Below are positions 1 to 43,911 of a stretch of 64,000 nt of DNA, in pieces. Location: assembly GCF_058153355.1 (NCBI RefSeq), contig NZ_CM177019.1. One strand, written 5' to 3'. Positions within the stretch are counted from its first letter, which is position 1. The number at the start of each line of letters is the position of its first letter. Under the pieces are notes generated by a model. The model was not told the DNA's origin. It was given only the letters and a program-made list of their open reading frames with translations, and searched no databases. Both the position numbers and the translations under genes were made by a program.

Positions 1-299
1 GCGTGATCCGCGCGAAGAAACAAGATTTGACCAGCGAAGAAATCACCAACCACATTGAAGCAGGAAAAGTGGTGACTAAACTGGCGCTCGACTGGCAGCA
101 GCGCATTCAGTTTGTGATGTGCGACGATGGTTCACTCAAGCGTCTGAAGTTCTGCGACGAGCTGCGCGATCAAAACGAAGATATCGACCGTGAAGATTTT
201 GCCCAACGTTTTGATGCCGATTTCATCCTGATGACCGGTGAACTGGCAGCATTAATCCAAAACCTGATCGAAGGATTAGGTGGCGAAGCACAACGTTAA
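1..299 (+). CDS. rdgC: Recombination-associated protein RdgC, C-terminal part (gene starts upstream of window)
   Basis: ORF 3..299 translation ends ...[15 protein letters not shown], recognised as RdgC C-terminus; position next to ppnP/aroM matches the E. coli map. Confidence 0.75.
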
Positions 300-317
300 T
301 TGCTGATTTGCCTTTAA

Positions 318-356
318 TGCCGGATGCGACGCCTGCGGCGTCTTATCCGGCGTACG
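318..356. repeat. REP (repetitive extragenic palindrome) between convergent rdgC and the 151-aa ORF
   Basis: gccggatgcgacgcctgcggcgtcttatccggcgtac: typical GCCGGATG...CTTATCCGGC REP palindrome. Confidence 0.6.
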
Positions 357-376
357 AATCCACACCAGGCATATAA

Positions 377-832
377 TCATTCGCTACGGCGGGCAATAAT
401 TTTTAGCGCAGCAATATTATGCGTTTTACGCCGTAACTGATCCAACCGTCTCATCCCTATTCGCCTGTCAGCGGCACGCAGAATATTCACTAACCCCCAT
501 TTATCGCTGGTAAATTGTTTCGTTAACAGCTCCGCTTTTGGGGTATCAATATATTCACGCAATAAATCAGAAATTGAACAAATATCCGTCAGATAAGGAT
601 ACCAGCAAGTTTCACCATGAAAATTACGCACTCCACCATTGCCTGCCATAAAGTCTTTTGGGTAATCCCAGATTACGTCTTTATCCAACGTGATCCAATA
701 ACGTGGTAAATCGGTGCTTCCACCATTTTGGCTGCGCATGGGATAACGGGTACAGTGAATTTGCAGGTTGATCGTTGGCGTCAGTAAGTCATAAATCTCC
801 CTCTGTAACTTGCTCCAGGGGCGTTGTGTCAT
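377..832 (-). CDS. Hypothetical 151-aa protein, second gene of accessory operon (possibly the intact form of the K-12 ykiA remnant)
   Basis: ORF 377..832; start overlaps stop of upstream 762-aa ORF (ATGA at 829..832), suggesting translational coupling; no recognisable motif. Confidence 0.55.
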
Positions 833-3117
833 TGTTTTTCCTCAAGCCGGTTACGCGCTTCACTGCGAATTTGCCGCGTTGCCCCGGTTTTCACTAAATC
901 ACGTAACTGCGAAAGATCGGGCTGATCGACAAATAAGATTAATGATGGATCCTCTTTTAACCACGCCGTTTTCACATCGGCAGCCAACTGTGGATTATTA
1001 ATAGCCAGCGCCCGATCCTGTGACTCAGTCAATGTCGTTAACAAAGAGGCTGGGGTATGTACATTGCGCAACGCCGTCTGCCGCAAATGATCATTGTGAC
1101 TTTTCAGCAATCCGCACCACCATTCATCATCTGATTTATCTTTTATCGTATCCAGCTCCGCAAAAATATCGCTTTCCTCATGATTCCAGCGGAGTAATCC
1201 TCTTTCACTTTGTCTACGGGTGCTATTTTTCATACTGACAACAGACAACGCCCAGTCGGAGTTAAAACGATACTGTTGATCGAGTTTGTTGATAATTCCG
1301 GAGGGTAAATCTTCATTATCAAATAGCTGGTTTCGCATCCGATAGCGGTATTCAGCAGGTAAATAAACCAGTAAATCGATGGCATTATTAAACATCTCTT
1401 CGTCAATAATACCATTATCAATCAGCGCCAGCTGTACTTCGTAGGCTTGCTCTTGATCTTCTTGCCGTTTACTCATCATTAATTTTAAGGTGTGTTGCCA
1501 TAATTGTTTCTTATACTCCAGAGGTAATAATTTATCGCGTGCCAGCTCATACCAGATGCTGGGAATGTCATGCTGATTCAGTAGATAACTAATCACTTCC
1601 TTCGAGGTCAGATAACGCATGCCGTCACGTAAGTTGTGCACATCTTCTTTTGCCAAAGTCAGTTGACGCGACTCCGGCAAAGCGACCAATAACGCCTTCA
1701 CGATATTTTTATTTTCTTTATTATCCAGATACATTTGTTCTGCGATACGTTCAACATCCTCTGTACTCAGGGTCGCTGACAGTTGGGTGATTTTTAGTTC
1801 AGTAAGCGTCCGGGCTAATGCTTGACGAACTTTCAGCGATTTATCTTTACTCAACAACACCGCTTGTTGTGCGGTTAAATCGGCTCCGGTAATTCTTTCG
1901 CGTAACTCCGGATCTTCGCTATTTATCAATTCATCAACCACTGCAGTTGGAACCAGCCAGGCGTAATCGTAATGGCTGATTAATGTCTTGCGCACACTGA
2001 GAAAAGGGCTTTGACTTAACGACACAACAATATCAGGAGAAAGATTATCCTGTCTGGCCTGCTCCAGCTGTATGCTCTCGACGGGTACAGACATTAATTT
2101 TTTATTCACTTCGGCGGATATATTGCTGTTTTTAACCAGTCCTCTGGCAACAGCTTCATCTTTAATTAATTCATCGGTAAGCAAATGCATGTGTTGAGCA
2201 GGCCAGGACTGCGCCATTGATTCACGCGTCTGGTCATCAGGGTGCTGTAACAATTGCAGCATAACAGCGGGTGACAAACGCTCTATATGTGTCAGAAAAC
2301 GTGCCATCAGTGGATCTTCATGCTTTATTTTATCCGCAGGGAAATTGTCGAGTTTACCCGCTTCAATCCACTGTAATTTCTCATTAATTTTAGAATCAGC
2401 TTTATCTCGAAAAACAGGTAACCCCTGAATTATATTATCTGCGACGCTATCATAGTCAGGATACGCATTAAAAATATTATCAGTTTCGATTTCAGTATGA
2501 TCGTAAAAGTCGGGATTCACCAGTGAATAGGCTTTCTTAATATTCTCATCCCAGCTATATCCTTCACCACTTGCATCTTCATTGATATAAAATTCAGCTT
2601 TGATGGACTCAAATTGCGTTGCTTTATCGGAAACAATAATTCCTCGTGCGCTAATTCCCTTCATCACTTCAAAATTATGATCATTATAATCAGCATAAAC
2701 TAAACCTTTTGCTGTCATCTGCCCTTTGACATACGCGAAATCATGATTAATAAAGTTATCGACAATAACATTACCTAGTACAATCAGATGACCATTACCT
2801 GACAGATAATCATCATAATCGCCGGAAATCGTTAAATTACCGTTCACCACCAGTTTATGCTGATTGCTGAAGTTAGTGGGTAATGATAGGTCACCATTAT
2901 GATAATACCAGCGGATATTATCTTTTAGCATATAAGCAGCTTCCATACTATCGTTGGTTGCCGCTTTAACCACGTTGCGCTCATCTGCCGTCATAAGATG
3001 AAAGTCAGAGGTGATAAGGTCCTCGCTACTGATCCACTCTGTGGCACATGCATTGCCAGTCATAAAAAATACGACCATACAGATGACCAATATATTAATT
3101 CTATTCATAATCTTCAC
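829..3117 (-). CDS. Hypothetical exported 762-aa protein: N-terminal signal peptide, beta-solenoid-like N-domain, long alpha-helical repeat region
   Basis: ORF 829..3117; N-terminus [25 protein letters not shown] has n/h/c signal-peptide regions; residues ~85-165 show repeated GN..V.G pattern; remainder is Leu/Glu/Lys/Gln-rich and HEAT-like; region looks AT-richer than flanking genes by eye. Confidence 0.65.
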
Positions 3118-3290
3118 TGATATTTATATCAACCTTGATGAATTATGAATATATCGGAAATCGAAAAAATCGCAGCAAAGGAAATATTATTATGGGTTAA
3201 AGAGAGGATATTTCAGAAAAATGCCCTCCCGTTCATGGGGAAGGCGAGGAATTACAGATAGCGGCACAGATAAGAGGTGGGTTCGGCAAC

Positions 3291-3536
3291 TTACAGATGA
3301 AACTCGCTGTGACCGGGAACATTAAACACCGAACCGGCTTCATACACTTGCCAGTCGGTCGCGTCAGGCAGTAACACATTCAGCGCACCACTGATTACCG
3401 TCATCTCTTCAGGCTCAGCGGTGCTGAAGGTGTATTCGCCTTCAACCATAACACCCACGCTGGCGCGGCCAGTGCTACTGCTGGAAAAGCCGATCGATTT
3501 CACTTTGCCGGAAAAGTACTCATTACTTTGAAGCAT
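3291..3536 (-). CDS. ppnP: Pyrimidine/purine nucleoside phosphorylase PpnP (YaiE), 81-aa form ending at in-frame TAA; 12 further in-frame codons (VAEPTSYLCRYL) follow before a second stop at 3252..3254
   Basis: Translation [17 protein letters not shown]...GHSEFHL matches PpnP; the K-12 protein as I recall is 94 aa ending HLQVAEPTSYLCRYL. Confidence 0.8.
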
Positions 3537-3607
3537 AAACTGGCCCTGTCTGGTAGTTGAACATCTACTTCACTATAGGGGCCAGAGGCGCTGGCTGTCA
3601 CGCAAAA

Positions 3608-4285
3608 TTACACCAGCAATTCCGCAGCTAGCCGTGCAATCAATACGTTAGAGAGCAAGACAGGAACATCGAGCTGTTTTTGCAGTAAATCGCGATGACG
3701 CTGGTTAAATCCCAAACAATCCAGCATGATGACATCTGCGCCTTTTGCCAGTAATTCTTTCCCGGCATCAATGATTTTTTGTTCCGAATCATGAATGGGG
3801 TTACCCAATGAAAATACTGGCGGTTTCTGCAAAATTTGCCATTTTTGCGCCTGAACGGTCAGTAGCTCTTCAACCGGTACGATAACCCCCACCTGATGAT
3901 CTTCAATAATAGAGGAAACCAGCGGTGGCAATATTCGCAACGGCTCAAGAAAGATCGTATTACGCTCAGTCATACTCCTAATGTTTGCTGTACTCATTAA
4001 TATAATGACGTCGTAGCCCTGATTATCGAGCACTTCAACCACACCTTGCAGGTCTCGCTCCACTTTGCGACGCGAAACATGGGCCAGTTGGTTGTCATTT
4101 AATAATGTGAGAATTGTGTCTTCGCCTGCTTCTGGCGCGTACTCTGCCATCACTTCTTCACGGCTTAACTTTCCCAGCAGGCTATGATGGGAAATATTAT
4201 CTTCGTCAATGTATTCTGTCAGGAGCGGCAAAACTTCCTGCATAGGTACAATGCCGATGGTCAGAATCGCCAACGACGCACTCAT
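3608..4285 (-). CDS. aroM: AroM protein
   Basis: 225-aa [19 protein letters not shown]..., recognised AroM; position downstream of aroL-yaiA. Confidence 0.9.
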
Positions 4286-4542
4286 TGTTCTTCCACCTTA
4301 CTTTTATTTCGTCGTTAATTACCGGGCAAGTGTTAAGCACCACTGCTGACACTTACTTGTGCTACAAATGACAAAAAGCGTAGCAGCAGACCTGCTCGGC
4401 ATAATGTAAAGATTCCAAATGATTCCAGTAATGGATTGTTATTGTTTAATATTCTAATTATTTGAAAAACATGAATTGTGAAAAATGTGACGCAGATCCC
4501 TTGTGGTGGCACTCAGAATCCCTTCCGAGCAGTCTGATGCGG

Positions 4543-4743
<201 letters not shown>

Positions 4744-4783
4744 TTATTTCACGGGATGAACGTTAAGTATAGGCGCTCGAAAA

Positions 4784-5308
4784 TCAACAATTGATCGTCT
4801 GTGCCAGGGCGCTGCGAATTTCAGAAATCACCTGGCTGGGTTCGTTTGTTGCGTCGATGATAATATGCGCAACTTCGCGATATAGCGCATCGCGTTCTTC
4901 CAGCACTTCCTGAACTTCTTCGCTCAGCGGTTTCCCCGTTAAGGTTGGCCGTAAATCTTCTTCCGGTGCAGCTTGCAGTCGGTTAACCAGGACTGATACT
5001 GGCGCACACAAATAAACCACGATCCCGTTATTTTGCATAAAGTGACGATTAAATTCCGTCAGGATAATGCCGCCGCCCGTGGCGATAACGGTGGATGGCG
5101 CAGTTACCGCTTCCAACGCCGCCGTTTCTCTGGCGCGGAATCCCGCCCACTCTTCCCTTTCGACGATCTCCGCGACCGTCATATTGAGCTGTGATTGCAA
5201 CCACTGGTCGGTATCGACAAACCGACGGTTAAGTGAATCGGCAAGGGCCATTCCGACCGTTGTTTTACCACAGCCCCGAGGCCCGATCAGAAAAAGAGGT
5301 TGTGTCAT
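4784..5308 (-). CDS. aroL: Shikimate kinase II
   Basis: 174-aa ORF with P-loop GPRGCGKTT, recognised AroL. Confidence 0.95.
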
Positions 5309-5371
5309 CGTGGGTTTTCCCCAATAGGTCGCAATGCGGCGAAAGCCGGTGTCATGAGAATAGCGATCATA

Positions 5372-5489
5372 CCATCAAACTAGTACAATTTCGATTGTAA
5401 AGAAAAAATTCCACTTAAAGTGAAAATTTTAATACATCCCTTACTATACCAATAAATTTTCAAGAATGAAGTGTAAATAATAAATTACA
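5372..5489 (-). promoter_or_regulatory. aroL promoter/operator region with TyrR box(es) and a TrpR-like half-site
   Basis: tgtaaataataaattaca at 5472..5489 fits TGTAAA-N6-TTTACA; weaker tgtaaagaaaaaattcca at 5396..5413; ACTAGTAC at 5379..5386 resembles a trp operator half-site; aroL is known to be TyrR/TrpR regulated. Confidence 0.5.
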
Positions 5490-5490
5490 T

Positions 5491-5949
5491 TCAGCCACGA
5501 CTACGTTGCACTTCCAGCCACCACTTCTCCAGCTCCGCGGCAAAGGCCTGGCGGTCACGTTGTGAAAGGCTATCTGGTCCCCCGGTCTGGATCCCACTGG
5601 CGCGTAAGGTATCCATAAAATCGCGCATCGTCAGGCGCTCACGAATGGTCGCTGGTGTGTAACGTTCGCCGCGTGGATTAAGCGCCGCAGCGCCTTTCTC
5701 GATGGCTTCAGCAGCCAAAGGAATATCTGCGGTGATCACCAAATCGCCCGCTTCACACTGCCGGACAATTTCGTTATCGGCAACGTCGAAACCTGCCGCG
5801 ACGCGCAGCGTTCGAATAAATCGCGAAGGTGGTACGCGTAAACTCTGGTTTGCTACCAGTACCAGCGGCATCTGCATACGTTCAGCCGCGCGATACAAAA
5901 TCTCTTTAATTACATTGGGACACGCGTCGGCATCCACCCAAATTGTCAT
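5491..5949 (-). CDS. yaiI: UPF0178 protein YaiI
   Basis: ORF 5491..6069; 152-aa product from internal Met [16 protein letters not shown]... matches YaiI. Confidence 0.85.
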
Positions 5950-6068
5950 AAAGTCATCCTTTGTTGGGTAATTCTCTATTGTGTCGCGCTTTTGCCTTCC
6001 GGCATAGTTCTGTTTATGCTTCTGCCAGCGATTATCAAAACAATGAATTTCACGGCAGGAGTGAGGCA

Positions 6069-6878
6069 ATGGAAAAGAAAATCGGTTTTATTGGCTGCGG
6101 CAATATGGGAAAAGCCATTCTCGGCGGTCTGATTGCCAGCGGTCAGGTGCTTCCAGGGCAAATCTGGGTATATACCCCCTCCCCGGATAAAGTCGCCGCC
6201 CTGCATGACCAGTTCGGCATCAACGCCGCAGAATCGGCGCAGGAAGTGGCGCAAATCGCCGACATCATTTTCGCCGCCGTTAAACCGGGCATCATGATTA
6301 AAGTGCTTAGCGAAATCACCTCCAGCCTGAATAAAGACTCTCTGGTCGTTTCTATTGCTGCGGGTGTCACGCTCGACCAGCTTGCCCGCGCGCTGGGCCA
6401 TGACCGGAAAATTATCCGCGCCATGCCGAACACTCCCGCACTGGTTAATGCCGGGATGACCTCCGTAACGCCAAACGCGCTGGTAACCCCAGAAGATACC
6501 GCTGATGTGCTGAATATTTTCCGCGGCTTTGGCGAAGCGGAAGTAATTGCCGAGCCGATGATCCACCCGGTGGTCGGTGTGAGCGGTTCTTCGCCAGCCT
6601 ACGTCTTTATGTTTATCGAAGCGATGGCCGACGCCGCCGTGCTGGGCGGGATGCCACGCGCCCAGGCGTATAAATTTGCCGCTCAGGCGGTAATGGGTTC
6701 CGCAAAAATGGTGCTGGAAACGGGAGAACATCCGGGGGCACTGAAAGATATGGTCTGCTCACCGGGAGGCACCACCATTGAGGCGGTACGCGTACTGGAA
6801 GAGAAAGGCTTCCGTGCCGCAGTGATCGAAGCGATGACGAAGTGTATGGAAAAATCAGAAAAACTCAGCAAATCCTGA
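6069..6878 (+). CDS. proC: Pyrroline-5-carboxylate reductase
   Basis: ORF 5961..6878; 269-aa product from Met [20 protein letters not shown] with Rossmann motif; recognised ProC. Confidence 0.95.
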
Positions 6879-6894
6879 TGACTTTCGCCGGACG

Positions 6895-8010
6895 TCAGGC
6901 CGCCACTTCGGTGCGGTTACGTCCGGCTTTCTTTGCTTTGTAGAGCGCCAAATCTGCCGATTTCAACCACTCCCGATAGTGACTCATTTGTGGATTCAGC
7001 GGCGCGACACCCACACTAATCCGTAACATCACCTGCGGTGTATTCGGCAAACGTAACGTATTTAGCCCTTCATGTACCCGTAACATGGCGGTAATGGCGC
7101 TCTCAGCTGGCGTACCGGACATGATCACCGCAAACTCATCGCCACCAAACCGACCAATCACATCGCTACCGCGCAGGGTAATTTGTAATTGTCGGGTAAG
7201 CGCCACAATCGCTTCATCGCCCACATCATGGCCCCAGGTATCGTTGATGCTCTTGAAATGGTCGATATCGATAATCAGTAACGTCGCATCGCGGTTATGC
7301 CGCCGACAGTTATCAAATTCATTGCGTAACATAGTTTCCCAATGACGTCGGTTATACACGCCCGTCATACCGTCGCGGGTACTCATGACCTGCAACCTGC
7401 GTTTATGTTCCGCCAGTTTAGTCGCCGTCTGGTAGCTGACCCAGCCAAACAGCATAGGATAAATGACGATAATGGGAAGGGAGAGCCACCATTCCAGCGG
7501 CGCACTATTGAACGACACGGTGATACCCGTCAGTTCGAGGGTGACAAGGCAGGAAACCACCATCAACACCAGACCCGCGACAAACAGACGGGGGCCGCCT
7601 GCCCCCATCAAATTCAGACACATAATCATCAACATCGCGGTGGAAGGCAGCACGTTTACGCCCATTACGCCTACCCACATTCCCGCTAATACTGCATCGG
7701 TTTTTAAGTTATAAATTTCCCGGCTAAGCGGATCGACAGCCCTACTCGCAATCTGCCAGGCTAAATGCGGCCAGACGAACGCCCAGCCGACCAACACCAG
7801 CCACCACCAGCCCGGCGGCGGGTGCGAAACCAGCGTTGAAGCAATCGGTAAGAACATGCCAGCCAGGCCAACCGCGCGGGGTAGTCTGACGCGACGGGCG
7901 AAGCGCAGCCCGGACCGCTGATGTTCGTTTTGAGGAGTTAAAGGAGGTTCCTCCCCATGCGCCGCCGCTTTTTTGAAAAAGTTTTCATCATTCATTATTT
8001 TTGGGAACAT
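6895..8010 (-). CDS. dgcC: Diguanylate cyclase DgcC (AdrA/YaiC), membrane MASE2 + GGDEF
   Basis: 371-aa ORF with hydrophobic N-terminal half and RFGGDEFAV GGDEF motif. Confidence 0.9.
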   Translation of the reverse strand: MFPKIMNDENFFKKAAAHGEEPPLTPQNEHQRSGLRFARRVRLPRAVGLAGMFLPIASTLVSHPPPGWWWLVLVGWAFVWPHLAWQIASRAVDPLSREIYNLKTDAVLAGMWVGVMGVNVLPSTAMLMIMCLNLMGAGGPRLFVAGLVLMVVSCLVTLELTGITVSFNSAPLEWWLSLPIIVIYPMLFGWVSYQTATKLAEHKRRLQVMSTRDGMTGVYNRRHWETMLRNEFDNCRRHNRDATLLIIDIDHFKSINDTWGHDVGDEAIVALTRQLQITLRGSDVIGRFGGDEFAVIMSGTPAESAITAMLRVHEGLNTLRLPNTPQVMLRISVGVAPLNPQMSHYREWLKSADLALYKAKKAGRNRTEVAA

Positions 8011-8111
8011 TCAGAAACAATTTTCCCAAATTATAGAGACGGGGCTAAAGGCAGAAGTATGAAATTTCGGGTGAGCCATTTTCGTAGCTCACCCGTTAGC
8101 ACTATCAGGTA

Positions 8112-8432
8112 TCAGGCGGCTTTCTTGAGGCAGGCGCTCATAAACTTATTACGATCATCACCTTTCAGAGATTGTTGCGTTGCTTGATTATTACATTCGC
8201 GCATCTTTTGCTGCTGTGGCGTCAAACTTTTTTCATCAGGCGCAGACTTGCTGTTCTTCAGGCAATCACTCATGTAGGTCTTACGAGCATCCCCTTTCAA
8301 CGCCTGCGCCGTCGCCTGCTGATTACAGGAGGTCATACGCTGTTGTTGCGGGGTTAAGGTTCTCTCGGCAGCGCCGACGGTGGTTAAAAAAACCAGTCCG
8401 AAAAGCAAGGTAACCAGTAATGTTATTTTCAT
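8112..8432 (-). CDS. psiF: Phosphate starvation-inducible protein PsiF
   Basis: ORF 8112..8450; 106-aa product from MKITLLVTLLFGL... with duplicated TPQQQ.M..CN motif; immediately downstream of phoA. Confidence 0.85.
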   Translation of the reverse strand: MKITLLVTLLFGLVFLTTVGAAERTLTPQQQRMTSCNQQATAQALKGDARKTYMSDCLKNSKSAPDEKSLTPQQQKMRECNNQATQQSLKGDDRNKFMSACLKKAA

Positions 8433-8550
8433 AGCACCATCCCTCTTCATGTTTTAACCATGAGCGTTTGCGCCCGTGATTTGCCATTAAGTCTGGTTGC
8501 TAACCGCAAAAAAACCACCCGACAGCGAGAATTCACCGCCGGGCGCGGTT

Positions 8551-9966
8551 TTATTTCAGCCCCAGGGCGGCTTTCATGGTGTAGAAGAGATCGGTCTGGT
8601 CGGTCAGTCCAACGACATTGGCGGCATGTGGGCCATACGCCGCAATACGCAGCTGACTACCGGTATGTTCTTGTGAATCCTCTTCGGAGTTCCCGTAACT
8701 CATCACCATCACTGCGCCATCTTTGGTATTTAGCGCCTGGGTGAGGCCCGGCGCTTTGGTGTCCGGCGCGACAATCTGGCTGGCGTGGGCGTGATCAGCG
8801 GTGACTATGACCAGCGTGTTGCCATCCGTTTTAGCGAATTCCAGCGCCCGTTGTACGGCTTCGTCGAGATCGACCGTCTCGCCAATTTGCCCACAAGGAT
8901 TCGCAGCGTGATCCTGTTTATCGATTGATGCACCTTCAACTTGCAGGAAAAAGCCTTTCTCATTTTTACTCAACAATTCAATGGCTTTATCAGTCATCTG
9001 CGCCAGGGTCGGTACGCTGTCATTACGTTGCGGATTAGGCGTACAGGTAACGGCGGGCTTGTCGATATTGCCGTGGTACGTTGCTTTCGGTCCTTGCCAG
9101 CGCACTGGCATATTGCCGTCAGCAAACAGGCCAAGCAGGGGTTTTTGCTGGTTCGCTTCCGTCACCGCGTTCAGCGAGGCAGCATCGTTCACTAACTGAT
9201 AACCACGCACCTGCGCCTGTTCACGCAGCGTTTTTCCCTGCCATTCACCAGCGGTTGCCGTTTCCGCAAAGGTTTTTGCGCCGCCGCCAAGCGTAACATC
9301 GGCACGGGCGTTAAGCAGCTGTTCGGTAATCGATCCTTTTCCGCCTTTTTCCAGCGCGTTACCCGGACATTTTTCACTGGTCGCGCTCGGACCGTAGCAT
9401 TTGCGCGAAGTCACATGCGCCACCAACGCGGCGGGAGTGGCATCCTGCAACTCTGCGGTAGAAATGTTACCGGTCGCCAGCCCTGCGGCTTTTGCCATTT
9501 CCAGAATCGTTGGGTGATCTTTTTCATGAATATCGACACCTAATGCGCCATTATAGGTTTTGACACCGGTTGACCAGGCAGTTGCTGATGCAGCCGAGTC
9601 GGTAACGTAGTCCGGTTTGCCGGTTTTTTTATTCAGCGCATAGTGAGTGTATTGCCCGGTAAGCGGTAAGGCATCAATACCTTTAAAAAAGCCGCCCGCA
9701 CCTTCGGCATAATTACGTGCGGCAGTAATTTCCGAATCCCCCATCCCATCGCCAATCAGCAAAATAATATTTTTTGCAGGCTTATCGCTAAGAGAATCAC
9801 GCAGAGCGGCGCTCTGATCACCCGTTAAGCGGCGAGCACCGCCGGGTGCAGTAATATCGCCCTGAGCAGCCCGGTTTTCCAGAATAGGCATTTCTGGTGT
9901 CCGGGCTTTTGTCACAGGGGTAAACAGTAACGGTAAGAGTGCCAGTGCAATAGTGCTTTGTTTCAC
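8551..9966 (-). CDS. phoA: Alkaline phosphatase (GTG start)
   Basis: ORF 8551..10008; [21 protein letters not shown] signal peptide and DSAASATAW active-site region; a few residue differences from the K-12 sequence as I recall it. Confidence 0.95.
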
Positions 9967-10028
9967 TTTATTTTCTCCATGTACAAATACATTAAAAAAT
10001 AAAAACAAAGCGACTATAAGTCTCAGCC

Positions 10029-10046
10029 GTGACAGCTTTATGACAG
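10029..10046 (-). promoter_or_regulatory. Pho box (PhoB binding site) of the phoA promoter
   Basis: Minus-strand CTGTCATAAAGCTGTCAC, two direct CTGTCA(T/C) repeats about 25 bp upstream of the -10 region and ~60 bp upstream of the phoA GTG. Confidence 0.7.
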
Positions 10047-10066
10047 CTGTTGAAAAGATTACCTTT

Positions 10067-10327
10067 TTACTGACGAGGATGCTTCAATAACTTCTTTACA
10101 TAATCGCGCAGCAGCTCCGTATCGTCGTCAGGAATGCTGGCATCGGGCTTTACCTCGTAAAGTGCCCCCTCTACCTGATCAATCAACCGCTGTTGGTCAT
10201 TTTGCGCCATATTACGAAGCATTGCAGTGACGATAATCTCCAGTGCTTCTACCTGCGCGCACAGTTCTTTCGACTCTTCTTCTTTTTGGGCAAGCTTAAA
10301 TAACAACTCAGCAATGAGATTTTTCAT
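10067..10327 (-). CDS. iraP: Anti-adaptor protein IraP
   Basis: 86-aa [25 protein letters not shown]..., recognised IraP (YaiB). Confidence 0.9.
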
Positions 10328-10789
10328 GTCTGTATTTCCTTATCCAAAGTATGGAGAAGTTAACATTATGCTTCACAACTTCATAGTGTCTGGAGGTAGT
10401 ATTTTTATGACGAATGAAATACTTTGCGCAAATATTTTTTCCATATTTATCAGCGAAACGTTTCTCTTATTTAAATAAGTAACCATACAAAGTATAGGTT
10501 TTTAATTATCAACCTTTATTATAAGTAAAAGTTATGAAATATATTCTCTTTGCTAACTTATAATTAAGAGAAAAAAACTCACTGCATGGCCATTTAAACC
10601 AGGAATAAATTAGCTTCCCGTTCATCATTTTTGTGATCTTGCGCACATCTTTGAGATAACGCACTTTCTTCACCAGTACGTTGCACACTTTGTCAGTAGA
10701 AGATTGCAACATTCTGTCAGAAGGCCGCGAATCCCCCGTTTTGTCGTGGTAATGTATGCACTTTGTGTTAGACGGGATAGGTTTTCAAG

Positions 10790-11884
10790 ATGGAAAAACT
10801 GCGGGTAGGAATCGTTTTTGGTGGTAAATCAGCGGAACATGAAGTGTCTTTGCAATCGGCAAAAAACATTGTCGATGCCATTGATAAAAGTCGCTTCGAC
10901 GTTGTGCTGCTGGGCATTGATAAACAAGGGCAATGGCACGTCAGCGATGCCAACAATTATCTGCTAAATGCAGACGATCCTGCCCATATTGCGTTGCGCC
11001 CTTCGGCGACCAGTCTTGCGCAGGTGCCTGGTAAACATGAGCATCAGCTTATCGACGCGCAAAACGGTCAGCCATTGCCGACGGTGGATGTCATTTTCCC
11101 GATTGTTCACGGTACGCTAGGCGAAGATGGTTCCTTGCAGGGAATGCTGCGGGTCGCCAATTTACCGTTTGTGGGTTCTGATGTTCTGGCGTCAGCAGCC
11201 TGTATGGATAAAGATGTCACCAAACGTCTGCTACGCGATGCCGGGCTGAACATTGCGCCATTTATTACCCTGACACGCACCAATCGTCAAAACATCAGTT
11301 TTGCCGAAGTGAAGTCAAAACTGGGGTTACCGCTGTTTGTAAAACCCGCTAACCAAGGCTCTTCTGTTGGTGTCAGCAAAGTAACCAGTGAAGAAGAGTA
11401 CGCAATTGCCGTCGATCTGGCGTTCGAGTTCGATCATAAAGTGATCGTTGAGCAAGGGATCAAAGGTCGTGAGATCGAATGCGCGGTTCTGGGCAACGAC
11501 AATCCGCAAGCCAGCACCTGTGGCGAGATCGTACTAACCAGCGATTTTTATGCCTACGACACCAAGTACATTGACGAAGATGGCGCGAAAGTGGTAGTTC
11601 CGGCAGCCATTGCGCCAGAAATCAACGATAAGATCCGGGCGATTGCCGTTCAGGCTTATCAGACGTTGGGATGCGCAGGCATGGCGCGTGTAGACGTGTT
11701 TTTAACCCCAGAGAACGAAGTGGTGATCAACGAGATCAACACACTGCCAGGCTTCACCAACATCAGTATGTATCCGAAGCTGTGGCAAGCCAGCGGTTTG
11801 GGTTACACCGACCTGATCACACGTCTGATCGAGTTGGCGCTGGAGCGTCACGCTGCGGATAACGCATTGAAAACCACAATGTAA
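10790..11884 (+). CDS. ddlA: D-alanine--D-alanine ligase A
   Basis: 364-aa [27 protein letters not shown]..., ATP-grasp Ddl signature. Confidence 0.95.
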
Positions 11885-11934
11885 TTTTTAAATGCCCAAT
11901 AACTGTAATTGGGCATTTAAGACTGTAAGATTGC

Positions 11935-12035
11935 CTGATGCGCTTTGCTTATCAGGCCTACAAGATAATTGCAATATACTGATTTTGTAGGCAGGATAAG
12001 GCGTTCGCGCCGCGTCCGGCAAAAACAACGAGCAC
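11935..12035. repeat. REP pair (BIME-like) downstream of ddlA
   Basis: gcctgatgcgctttgcttatcaggcctac ... gtaggcaggataaggcgttcgcgccgcgtccggc. Confidence 0.6.
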
Positions 12036-12050
12036 TTTGTCAGCCCCCAG

Positions 12051-12090
12051 AACGCCCAATCCTCTGTTATTGGGCGTTTTCAGTTTCTTC
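12051..12090 (+). terminator. Candidate intrinsic terminator (hairpin + T-rich tail) for ddlA, overlapping the yaiZ 3' end
   Basis: aacgcccaat-cctctgtt-attgggcgtt stem-loop followed by ttcagtttcttc. Confidence 0.35.
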
Positions 12091-12279
12091 ATCGCGACGA
12101 CGAATAATCAGCCCCGCGAGCCAGAAACTAATCACCCACGTCACCAGACCAACGGCATAGGTCTGCCAACCTTTTGCTTCAAATCCCAGTAACCCCACCA
12201 CGCCATTAAGAATGAATATCAGGCCAATGGCGAACGCATAGTAGTGCCAGTCACGGCGAATTTTTACAGGCAGACTCAT
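12067..12279 (-). CDS. yaiZ: Small inner-membrane protein YaiZ
   Basis: ORF 12067..12306; 70-aa product from MSLPVKIRRDWHYYAFAIGLIFILNG..., two hydrophobic helices. Confidence 0.75.
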   Translation of the reverse strand: MSLPVKIRRDWHYYAFAIGLIFILNGVVGLLGFEAKGWQTYAVGLVTWVISFWLAGLIIRRRDEETENAQ

Positions 12280-12537
12280 GGCAGCTCCGTTAACGAAAAA
12301 TAACATCTTCGCATAATCGATAACTTACGTCTGTGGGGTAGACAGCATTTCCCGTATCGTTAAAAAGTTTAACTTAAAGTTACCGTTTTGTGACTCGTGA
12401 CAAATATTCCCGCTTCGGGAATATTCCCAACATCAATTTACCATGATTCTGATATTGACAATCTAAATGACCTGTCAGACTTGCCATAAGCCGCTGGTAT
12501 CACACCAGAAGAGAAGCAGATGACTTCCGGAGGTTTT

Positions 12538-12846
12538 ATGGCTGATTTCACCCTGTCAAAATCGCTGTTTAGCGGAAAATATCGCAATGCCTCTTCTACG
12601 CCTGGCAACATTGCCTATGCGTTGTTTGTGCTGTTTTGCTTTTGGGCTGGGGCGCAATTGCTGAACCTGTTAGTGCATGCGCCCGGCGTCTATGAGCGTT
12701 TAATGCAGGCTCAGGAAACAGGCCGCCCACGGGTGGAAATTGGTTTAGGTGTCGGTACCATTTTCGGACTGATCCCATTTTTAATTGGCTGCTTCATTTT
12801 TGCAGTGGTGGCGCTATGGCTGCACTGGCGACATCGCCGCCAGTAA
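12538..12846 (+). CDS. yaiY: Inner-membrane protein YaiY
   Basis: ORF 12520..12846; 102-aa product from [20 protein letters not shown]... Confidence 0.75.
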
Positions 12847-12903
12847 GAGTAGGTTGCCAGATGCGGCCTAAAATGCCTTATCTGGCCTGGCGTTGCCTTT
12901 TGC

Positions 12904-13998
12904 TTACTGTTTCATACAACGCGCCCGCCGTTCGTCTACGCGCTTCGCAAACCAGGCCGTAGTCAGATTGCGGGTAATTTTCGGGCTTTCCAGTTGGATG
13001 CCGGGCAACATTTCGCGGGGTAGTGATCTACCCGTTTTCGCTTCGGCAAGTTGATAAACTTTCTTGTACAGCGCCGTCTCCTCAAAAGAGAAGCTGTCCC
13101 CTTTCTCTAACTGACGGCGAATTTCGCTGTCGCTCATCCCCAGTTTGCCTGCCAGTTTGCGCGTTGCCAGCTCTGTTTTCCCAGGTTCTTTACTGTCGTA
13201 ACGAATTAAATCACCGTCCAGCGCCAGCTTCATGCCAGTGGCCTTACTGACCGCGTTCTGAAAAGCGGCATTACGGCTGGCGTACCAGCCAGCGTTAAAA
13301 TCGGCAAAACGGTATATCGGCGCGCTATAACTGGCGGGATAATTCAGTAAATGGTAAGTACCGAACCACAATCCGCCGCGGCGACTGAAGACTTCCTGAC
13401 GGACTGTACCGTCCATTTTCCACGGATACCCTTTAGTATGCTGTTCGGCAAACGCAATGCTGACCTGCATCGGTCCACCGGTACGTACCGGATTAAGCGA
13501 ACCAAACAGCGTCTGCCCCATTGGCACCATGCTGATCAAATCGTCAAAAATCGCGCTTAATTGCTTTTCTGTACGCACAGAATCTAACCGCTCACTATAA
13601 CTTTTGCCGTTTGGCGATTTGATTTTTAGCGCGGTATGAACCAGAAAAGCAGGGATGTGCATCCGTTCGGCACGACGGTCAATCTCTTGCCATGCTATCT
13701 TGCTTAAGCCCGGAACGGGCGGATCTGCCTGATAATTTGACTCCTGCTGCGCCACCGCCAGCACCGAGCAGACATTTTCCAGCGTCGGTGCCAGCCCCTG
13801 ACTTTCAAACGTGGTGGCAAGATCTTTCGCCCAGGCATCGCGGTCTTTCACACTCGCGGGCATCTTCTGCCGCACGACGCTCGCCACATCTATCGCTTTT
13901 TCGCCCTTTTTCAACGGTTGCGGAGCCTGACTACTACACCCTGCTAAAACCAGAACCGCCAATAACGAAAGCGAAGATAGATGATTGACGCGCGACAT
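12904..13998 (-). CDS. yaiW: Lipoprotein YaiW
   Basis: 364-aa ORF with lipoprotein signal LLAVLVLAGCSS; downstream of sbmA in the same orientation. Confidence 0.85.
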   Translation of the reverse strand: MSRVNHLSSLSLLAVLVLAGCSSQAPQPLKKGEKAIDVASVVRQKMPASVKDRDAWAKDLATTFESQGLAPTLENVCSVLAVAQQESNYQADPPVPGLSKIAWQEIDRRAERMHIPAFLVHTALKIKSPNGKSYSERLDSVRTEKQLSAIFDDLISMVPMGQTLFGSLNPVRTGGPMQVSIAFAEQHTKGYPWKMDGTVRQEVFSRRGGLWFGTYHLLNYPASYSAPIYRFADFNAGWYASRNAAFQNAVSKATGMKLALDGDLIRYDSKEPGKTELATRKLAGKLGMSDSEIRRQLEKGDSFSFEETALYKKVYQLAEAKTGRSLPREMLPGIQLESPKITRNLTTAWFAKRVDERRARCMKQ

Positions 13999-14010
13999 TA
14001 CTTCTCCTTT

Positions 14011-15231
14011 TTAACTCAAGGTATGGGTTACTTCCTGAATTTTGTCACCATCCAGCTCATGTTCAAAGCTGCGCAGACGTTTGTAGATAGACATCAACTC
14101 AACCAGCGTGGTCCATGAGTTAATCAGGTACTGAAAAGCACCGCGAACCTGACCAAAAACGTTGGTAATCTGCGTCATCAGGCCGAGCGTAATCGTACCG
14201 GCAACAATCGACGGAAACAGCAAGAACAAACCGAAAACGTTATCGACCTGCAAATAGAGAATGCGGGCGATGTTGAAATACATATAGTGAAAATAGAGGC
14301 GGAAATAGTTTTTCCGCACGGCGCTAAACAGCTCGCGTACCGTAGGCGGCGTCGCGCGCGATGCATCGTCTTCACCATAAACCAACTCTTTACGGTAGGC
14401 AGCTTCTACACGCTGATTTTTAAACTCCAGTCCCGGCAGTTTGATCCCAACCACTGCCAGTAATCCGGTCCCCATCAACGACCATACGATAGCAGCAATC
14501 ACCAGACCATACGGAATATGCCCGACAATCGGCAGCTCTGGCACATGCGCAGAGAGCGTTACCAGTACCGGCAGGAAGGCGATCAACGTCATAATAGCGT
14601 TGATAAAACTGACGCCCATATTCTCAAGCGTTGAAGCAAAACGCATGGTGTCTTCCTGCACACGCTGGGCGGCACCTTCGATATGACGCAGTTGTTGCCA
14701 GTTCGCCATGTAATATTCGTTCATCGCCGTACGCCAGCGGAACACGTAGTGACTGACAAAGAAGTTGTTCAGCACACTGATCACCACCGCGATCAGCGCA
14801 ATCCCCAGAAAGACGCCCACTTCGCGGTAAAATTGTTCGATAGTGACTTTATGCGGCGAACTTAGCGCAGTTTGAATCAGATCATAAAACGGCGCATACC
14901 AGGCGTTGACGGCAACTCCAACTTCCACCAAAAACCAGGTGACGAAGATAATCAACGCAGTACCGAGTATTGACCAGTATTGCCAACGATGCGGGCTATA
15001 AATAAACCAGAACAGTGCAAAAAGCCCTACGCAAACAATGTAGTAAGCGTAAAAAATCAGGAAATCTAACGACCAGAAACGCGCGGCGCTAATTGGGATC
15101 TGCCCGGAAGCTCCGGTGATGCGCGCCACCCAATCCCCCCCACCGGCTTGCCAGAAGATAACGGCAATCAATGCCCAAACAAAGGCCGAGAGAAAAAACG
15201 TTCCCGGCTTTGGGAAAAAAGACTTAAACAT
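14011..15231 (-). CDS. sbmA: Peptide antibiotic/microcin transporter SbmA
   Basis: ORF 14011..15237; 406-aa polytopic membrane protein from [24 protein letters not shown]... Confidence 0.9.
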
Positions 15232-15582
15232 ATGCACTCCTGCTAACTTCTTATCGTTTTAACAACTGCTGTGTATTAACCGCATGACCGCTACAAAGAA
15301 TCAGCCAAATGAAACCGCCCATTGTGACCCATAGCAAGGCGCATAGTTCGCCAGCCTGACCATAAGAATTGTTTCGACGGATTTCACAAACCAAAGATTA
15401 TTTACATTAGCGGATTAACACGCGCAGGATCACAAATGCAGGCATTGGTGAGCAGGAAAAAGATCGTGTTTACGCGCCGTTACGTTTTTAACACTATTAT
15501 TGCACTAATTCGCCCTTTGCAATCCATCAATGAGTAGTATAAATACGCTCAGTTACCTTCATTCAATCTATGGACACCACCG

Positions 15583-16740
15583 TTGAAACGTAGTCTGCTT
15601 TTTTCTGCCGTGCTTTGTGCGGCGTTATTGACCCCCGTCCATGCGGCGCAGCCGATCACTGAACCGGAGTTCGCCTCTGATATTGTCGATCGTTATGCCG
15701 ATCATATTTTTTATGGCAGTGGTGCCACGGGGATGGCGCTGGTTGTTATCGACGGTAACCAGCGCGTCTTTCGCAGTTATGGCGAAACGCGCCCGGGTAA
15801 TAACGTTCGCCCGCAGCTGGATTCGGTCGTGCGTATTGCTTCGCTCACCAAGCTAATGACCAGTGAGTTGCTGGTGAAATTGCTCGACCAGGGGACCGTG
15901 AAGTTAAACGATCCGCTAAGTAAATATGCTCCACCAGGCGCACGCGTGCCGACTTACAATGGCACGCCTATTACCCTGGTGAATCTGGCAACCCATACCA
16001 GTGCCTTGCCACGTGAACAGCCGGGAGGCGCGGCACATCGTCCAGTGTTTGTCTGGCCAACGCGCGAGCAACGCTGGAAATACCTTTCTACGGCGAAGCT
16101 GAAAGCCGCGCCAGGCAGTCAGGCGGCATATTCTAACCTTGCGTTCGACCTGCTGGCAGATGCACTGGCGAATGCTTCCGGCAAGCCTTATACCCAGTTG
16201 TTTGAAGAGCAGATTACCCGTCCATTGGGGATGAAAGACACCACCTACACCCCCTCGCCGGACCAGTGCCGCCGTTTAATGGTTGCAGAGCGCGGTGCCA
16301 GTCCATGCAATAACACGCTGGCGGCAATTGGCAGCGGCGGAGTCTATTCCACGCCTGGCGATATGATGCGCTGGATGCAGCAGTATTTGTCATCTGATTT
16401 TTATCAGCGCAGTAATCAGGCGGATCGCATGCAGACGTTGATTTATCAGCGCGCGCAGTTTACGAAAGTGATTGGCATGGATGTCCCCGGCAAAGCGGAT
16501 GCGCTTGGTTTAGGCTGGGTATATATGGCCCCGAAAGAGGGTCGTCCGGGGATTATTCAGAAGACAGGTGGTGGTGGCGGTTTCATTACCTATATGGCGA
16601 TGATCCCGCAGAAGAATATTGGCGCGTTTGTGGTGGTTACTCGTTCGCCATTGACGCGCTTTAAAAATATGAGCGATGGCATCAATGACCTGGTGACCGA
16701 ACTGAGCGGGAATAAACCGTTGGTCATCCCCGCGTCCTGA
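15583..16740 (+). CDS. ampH: Penicillin-binding protein AmpH (class C beta-lactamase fold)
   Basis: 385-aa ORF with signal peptide and SLTK serine-active-site motif. Confidence 0.9.
   Translation: MKRSLLFSAVLCAALLTPVHAAQPITEPEFASDIVDRYADHIFYGSGATGMALVVIDGNQRVFRSYGETRPGNNVRPQLDSVVRIASLTKLMTSELLVKLLDQGTVKLNDPLSKYAPPGARVPTYNGTPITLVNLATHTSALPREQPGGAAHRPVFVWPTREQRWKYLSTAKLKAAPGSQAAYSNLAFDLLADALANASGKPYTQLFEEQITRPLGMKDTTYTPSPDQCRRLMVAERGASPCNNTLAAIGSGGVYSTPGDMMRWMQQYLSSDFYQRSNQADRMQTLIYQRAQFTKVIGMDVPGKADALGLGWVYMAPKEGRPGIIQKTGGGGGFITYMAMIPQKNIGAFVVVTRSPLTRFKNMSDGINDLVTELSGNKPLVIPAS

Positions 16741-40716: not shown

Positions 40717-43911
<3,195 letters not shown>

Follow-up and report, generated by a model that had tools for sequence, protein, structure and literature searches.

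In Escherichia coli K-12, phoA-psiF is listed among the PhoB-activated operons, and phoA RNA decreases from 310,112 in the wild type to 1,548 in a phoB deletion, i.e., an approximately 200-fold PhoB dependence (PMC10294691). The phoA promoter contains a single Pho box (PMC8601176), the centre of which (401675.5) coincides with the centre of a ChIP-seq PhoB peak (401676; PMC10294691) and which a ChIP-chip study has called at -71.5 from the start codon (PMC3465305). A 44-bp fragment reduced to the box, the -10 and the bases as far as CGCTTTG is still regulated by Pi (PMC8601176). When assessed by EMSA, PhoB~P binds the K-12 phoA box with a Kd of 0.59 µM, which is weak compared to the phoB promoter site (PMC4447250). 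According to Gao and Stock, this low affinity may stem partly from a 4-bp extension composed of G/C pairs only (GGCC) and from one G/C pair in the spacer, the extension being contacted through the minor groove, where A/T pairs are slightly preferred (PMC4447250). Engineered variants brought closer to the consensus have a Kd decreased by up to 5-fold and an earlier onset of expression, with an unchanged plateau at wild-type PhoB levels (PMC4447250).

The mechanism at K-12 pstS is the same as at phoA, PhoB~P replacing the -35 contact. The pstS promoter, reported to contain several Pho boxes, has a box, CTGTCATAAAACTGTCAT (TGTCATAAAACTGTCATA in the ChIP-seq register), both repeats of which open with CTGTCA, like the phoA allele analysed here. 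With 23.7 bits, it ranks first among the sites of the ChIP-seq matrix, our phoA box reaching 20.9 bits with the same matrix version. Compared to the pstS box, ours has G for A at position 11, C for T at position 18 and a G/C-rich 3' extension (GGCT).

The locus studied here lies in a 64,000-nucleotide stretch of contig NZ_CM177019.1 (assembly GCF_058153355.1), the whole of which is called the window. A sequence-only reading had proposed a Pho box upstream of phoA-psiF at 10029-10046, and the minus strand bears this out exactly, 10046..10029 reading CTGTCATAAAGCTGTCAC, with two CTGTCA repeats 11 bp apart. Downstream, phoA (8551..9966, minus strand, GTG start, 471 aa plus stop) is intact, with 9 amino acid differences from K-12, and all matching genomes have it annotated as phoA. 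It is followed by psiF, the second gene of the operon (8112..8432, minus strand), whose product differs from K-12 PsiF at one residue. The upstream neighbour iraP (10067..10327, minus strand) lies outside the element, its stop codon being 20 bp upstream of the Pho box, and encodes a protein identical to K-12 IraP. The gene order ddlA-iraP-phoA-psiF-adrA (adrA/dgcC) is the usual one for E. coli, and both phoB and phoR are located outside the 64-kb window.

On the evidence of its sequence, of a matrix scan and of orthology with K-12, the element (10029..10046, minus strand) is a classical 18-bp Pho box, composed of two 7-bp direct repeats, CTGTCAT and CTGTCAC, separated by the 4-bp spacer AAAG. 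The longer, 22-bp PhoB-dimer site (10025..10046, minus strand), which PMC4447250 defines from the PhoB-DNA structure, consists of two 11-bp tandem repeats, CTGTCATAAAG (10046..10036) and CTGTCACGGCT (10035..10025), in both of which the TGTCA major-groove tract is perfect. Over this region, the minus strand reads ...CAACAG CTGTCATAAAG CTGTCAC GGCTGAGACT TATAGT CGCTTTG....

The same reading had placed two direct repeats of the CTGTCA type in the position of the -35 region, and the promoter geometry agrees with this. The box ends at 10029 and the -10 hexamer TATAGT (10013..10018, minus strand, assigned by sequence) begins at 10018, leaving a 10-bp gap, with the box occupying the place where a -35 hexamer would sit. 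Such a gap between box and -10 has been described as the rule at PhoB promoters (PMC1906773). A promoter scan identified no sigma-70 -35/-10 pair for phoA and, by direct reading, the candidate -35 hexamers with 16-18 bp spacers from TATAGT match TTGACA at just 2/6 positions, as would be expected of an activator-dependent Pho promoter.

As no explicit coordinate for a mapped phoA start site was found in the literature searched, the transcription start was deduced from the -10 and is probably the G at 10006 (minus strand), 7 nt past it; the minimal Pi-regulated PphoA fragment ends at the G equivalent to 10006 (PMC8601176). With this putative +1, the 18-bp box would extend from -40 to -23 and the 22-bp site from -40 to -19, so that the box would lie within the -40/-20 interval named in the sequence-only reading. 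The centre of the box is 71.5 bp upstream of the phoA GTG start at 9966, a distance equal to that of the K-12 box, and the start codon is preceded by a Shine-Dalgarno GGAG (9975..9978, minus strand), invariant across the aligned Escherichia species.

When compared with the K-12 phoA Pho box, CTGTCATAAAGTTGTCAC, the box of the window is at the orthologous position and identical at 17/18 bases; the two promoters also share the 10-bp gap to TATAGT, the centre-to-GTG distance and the flanking genes. The iraP-phoA spacer is 100 bp long and has three differences from K-12 MG1655 in the alignment. The first one, at 10035 (minus strand; C in the window, T in K-12), is position 12 of the box and opens the second repeat (AGCTGTCAC versus AGTTGTCAC). 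This is the one-base difference in the second half-site that the sequence-only reading had suspected; it turns out to be a common allele rather than an anomaly. The two others had escaped that reading. At 10025 (minus strand), the window has T and K-12 has C (GGCT versus GGCC), this being position 22, the last base of the 22-bp PhoB footprint, within the four bases beyond the 18-bp box. The change at 10062 (window G, K-12 T) is outside the PhoB site.

Divergence from K-12 is 3.0% in the spacer, 4.1% in phoA itself and 2.0-5.6% in the local segments, and three differences in 100 bp thus correspond to the background. Selection acting on the operator was considered and set aside, as the SNP density of the spacer does not exceed that of the segments next to it. 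The presence of two of the three differences inside the 22-bp site is no evidence of selection either, its probability being about 0.12 under uniform placement (binomial arithmetic).

The change at 10025 also bears on another function for these repeats, namely that they would mainly be part of an RNA hairpin or terminator ending iraP transcription. A scan for terminator-like structures picked out a stem at 10029..10011 with a T-run after it, the C-to-T change turns a C-A mismatch of this stem into a T-A pair, and the predicted fold is of -12.4 kcal/mol for the window versus -9.2 for K-12. Compared to shuffled sequence, however, the folds show no advantage (z = -0.66 and +0.11), two of the pairs in the stem are G-T, orthologues show little conservation between the box and the -10, and compensatory covariation of the stem was not seen among species. 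Against Rfam, the region 9700..10800 yielded chance-level matches alone and no family. A hairpin overlapping the -10 was consequently rejected on its folding, and we hold a terminator role of the repeats to be very improbable.

A Pho box is supported by motif scoring. An 18-bp log-odds matrix was built from 58 ChIP-seq PhoB sites (Table 1 of Fitzgerald et al., 2023; PMC10294691), with phoA excluded. The box, with 20.8 bits, is the top match on both strands of the window, the runner-up having 15.6 bits; among 30 shuffles, the mean maximum is 14.6 bits and the highest score 18.6. It would place 3rd among 59 ChIP-seq PhoB sites. The string CTGTCATAAAGCTGTCAC itself is the sole match in the window even with three mismatches allowed, for a mean of 0.07 matches in shuffles. 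Moreover, the box agrees with the published consensus CTGTCAT-A(AT)A(TA)-CTGT(CA)A(CT) at 17/18 positions, position 18 accepting C or T, and the K-12 box at 16/18 (PMC3465305).

Conservation was assessed with one genome per species, in 80 phoA loci (71 distinct sequences) from Escherichia, Citrobacter, Enterobacter, Klebsiella, Kosakonia, Kluyvera and other genera. In all 80 loci, the sequence upstream of phoA that best matches the matrix is a box built in the same way. The 71 distinct sequences hardly vary in the TGTCA tracts (columns 2-7 and 13-17) and in the -10, and a -10 of the TAnnnT type is found exactly 10 bp past the box in 70 of them (TATAGT in 43, CATAAT in one). In the same set of promoters, the start of the leader, TCGCTTTGTTTTTATTTTTT (about 10012..9995, minus strand; box-relative columns 35-52), is conserved about as well as the TGTCA tracts, unlike the spacer between box and -10. 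This conserved leader start could reflect the initial transcribed region or a leader function.

Could the box nevertheless be a chance occurrence of the motif, devoid of any regulatory role? Short A/T-rich direct repeats do arise by chance, and most ChIP-seq PhoB sites of K-12 are transcriptionally inert (PMC10294691). Yet the box is the best match in 64 kb and exceeds all shuffles, its K-12 orthologue is a site of proven function, and both the core and the distance to the -10 have been retained in 80 species-level genomes. Score, orthology and conservation together effectively refute a chance motif, whose probability we consider negligible.

Our results thus point to the element being a functional PhoB operator, the Pho box of the phoA-psiF promoter, with near-neutral polymorphisms at 10035 and 10025, a reading based on sequence comparison to which we give a probability of about 0.93. 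By analogy with K-12, PhoB~P would be expected to bind the window allele, as judged from the 17/18 identity and the change toward consensus, and the approximately 200-fold PhoB-dependent induction of phoA-psiF would be transferred from the K-12 orthologue by homology. Under phosphate limitation, phosphorylated PhoB would bind the two 11-bp repeats (10046..10025) as a head-to-tail dimer and stand in for the missing -35 element, thereby recruiting sigma-70 RNA polymerase to the TATAGT -10, 10 bp downstream, and switching on alkaline phosphatase and PsiF. The T-to-C change at 10035 and the C-to-T change at 10025 would be natural polymorphisms of weakly constrained positions, both toward consensus.

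The phoA Pho box is already known, and C at 10035 is a common natural allele at a loosely constrained position. Allele counts were obtained in 5,426 complete E. coli genomes by megablast with 36-base probes seeding on one allele alone. C is found in 616/5,426 genomes and T, the K-12 allele, in 4,769/5,426. Position 12 is C in 29 of the 59 ChIP-seq PhoB sites (T 13, A 13, G 4), where it adds 1.2 bits over the T of K-12, and in 34 of the 71 orthologues (G 14, T 14, A 9), where the column has an information content of 0.19 bits; C is therefore the commonest base at this position in both sets. Position 22 was judged from the text of PMC4447250 and from the orthologue columns.

Within Escherichia, E. 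albertii, E. whittamii and two more lineages labelled E. coli have C12, and K-12 and Escherichia sp. E1V33 have T12. Position 1 also toggles between C and T, L002, L003 and L006 being T1/C12 and K-12 and L005 being C1/T12. The phoA box of E. albertii, CTGTCATAAAGCTGTCAT, has, like the window, C at both repeat-initial positions and an identical -10 and leader; it differs from the window by T at position 18 and by the extension GCCG. Judging from these alignments, the T12 of K-12, and with it the usually quoted second repeat TTGTCAC, is one state of a recurrent C/T polymorphism. Parsimony would make C12 at least as likely as T12 to be ancestral. Closer to the consensus than T, the C allele is present in about 11% of the complete E. 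coli genomes, as well as in other Escherichia species. The exact C-allele string, CTGTCATAAAGCTGTCAC, was found in no searchable paper.

The combination of C at 10035 and T at 10025 is much rarer. A 51-base probe carrying both has an exact match in just 16 of the 616 C-allele genomes, and these 16 appear to be the same 16 genomes that are 100% identical to the window over a 301-bp promoter segment. Over 12 kb (window 4000..16000), the best match among the 5,426 complete genomes is just 99.3% identical, and 18 records reach 99%. As the best match is so distant, the window may come from a rare lineage, and these comparisons suggest either such a lineage or a mosaic at the phoA locus.

Another reading is that the Pho box is the same but that the double allele is a real regulatory variant. 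Both changes go toward consensus, with a gain of 1.2 bits at position 12 and an A/T instead of a G/C pair in the minor-groove extension, the G/C-only composition of which may be one cause of the low affinity at K-12 phoA (PMC4447250). With substitutions in this direction, Kd was as much as 5-fold lower and expression began earlier (PMC4447250), and the double allele is found in only 16/5,426 genomes. On the other hand, positions 12 and 22 are among the least constrained ones, with 0.19 bits each in the 71 orthologues, and the orthologues have no A/T preference at position 22 (A 28, C 17, G 21, T 5). In addition, several A/T substitutions were needed in the Hi variant, and maximal expression is insensitive to affinity at wild-type PhoB levels (PMC4447250). 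Finally, the SNP density is that of the local background. We therefore regard a regulatory variant as rather unlikely. The more specific proposal that the rare double allele is a naturally tuned operator, which would have a measurably higher affinity for PhoB~P than the K-12 one and produce alkaline phosphatase earlier in the Pho response, is somewhat less likely still.

If log-odds scale with binding energy, 1.2 bits would correspond to an approximately 2.3-fold affinity difference. Under the preferred reading of near-neutral polymorphisms in a functional operator, the two alleles together would be expected to have no effect, or to raise PhoB affinity slightly (about two-fold or less), with consequences for the onset of induction rather than for its maximum. 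On the model of Gao and Stock, a small affinity change would indeed shift the onset time and not the maximal expression. Were the tuned double allele real, it would represent a natural case of cis-regulatory micro-evolution along the affinity-timing axis that these authors have defined with engineered variants. Since the phoA promoter is in standard use for reporters and expression, a natural allele of possibly higher PhoB affinity could also be a mild practical curiosity. Otherwise, the lineage of the window keeps a canonical PhoB-controlled phoA-psiF promoter, which is of little import beyond annotation, and no open question hinges on the allele of the phoA box.

Several minor observations were made elsewhere in the window. 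The ddlA-iraP intergenic region is the segment most diverged from K-12 (5.6%); between these two genes, a 67-aa ORF (10509..10712, minus strand) carries a hypothetical-protein annotation in strain 2013C-4282 and none in K-12. The minus strand also contains a 762-aa ORF at 829..3117 and a further stretch at about 377..832. In strain 2013C-4282, the stretch collinear with window 1..11918 (98.6% identical) encodes a DUF2773-domain protein and then an SF0329-family gene, between ppnP and rdgC, a pair that is presumably absent from that position in K-12.

The second and third matches to the PhoB matrix are at 12378..12395 (minus strand, 15.6 bits) and at 40870..40887 (minus strand, 15.2 bits), the latter at the 5' end of lacZ. 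Neither was retained as a PhoB site, their scores being within the range of shuffled sequence and the matches probably due to chance. The lacZ gene itself (40839..43911, plus strand) appears frameshifted, with a break near 41010-41020: the frame starting at ATG 40839 follows LacZ to ...LNGEWQ and then meets a stop, and LacZ-like sequence resumes as an ORF at 41005..43911. At this break, the closest complete genomes have 303 bases to the window's 301 and an intact annotated lacZ, which indicates either a private 2-bp deletion or an assembly error in the window. Most E. coli genomes are just 90-95% identical at the break, which points to a divergent lac allele in the window.
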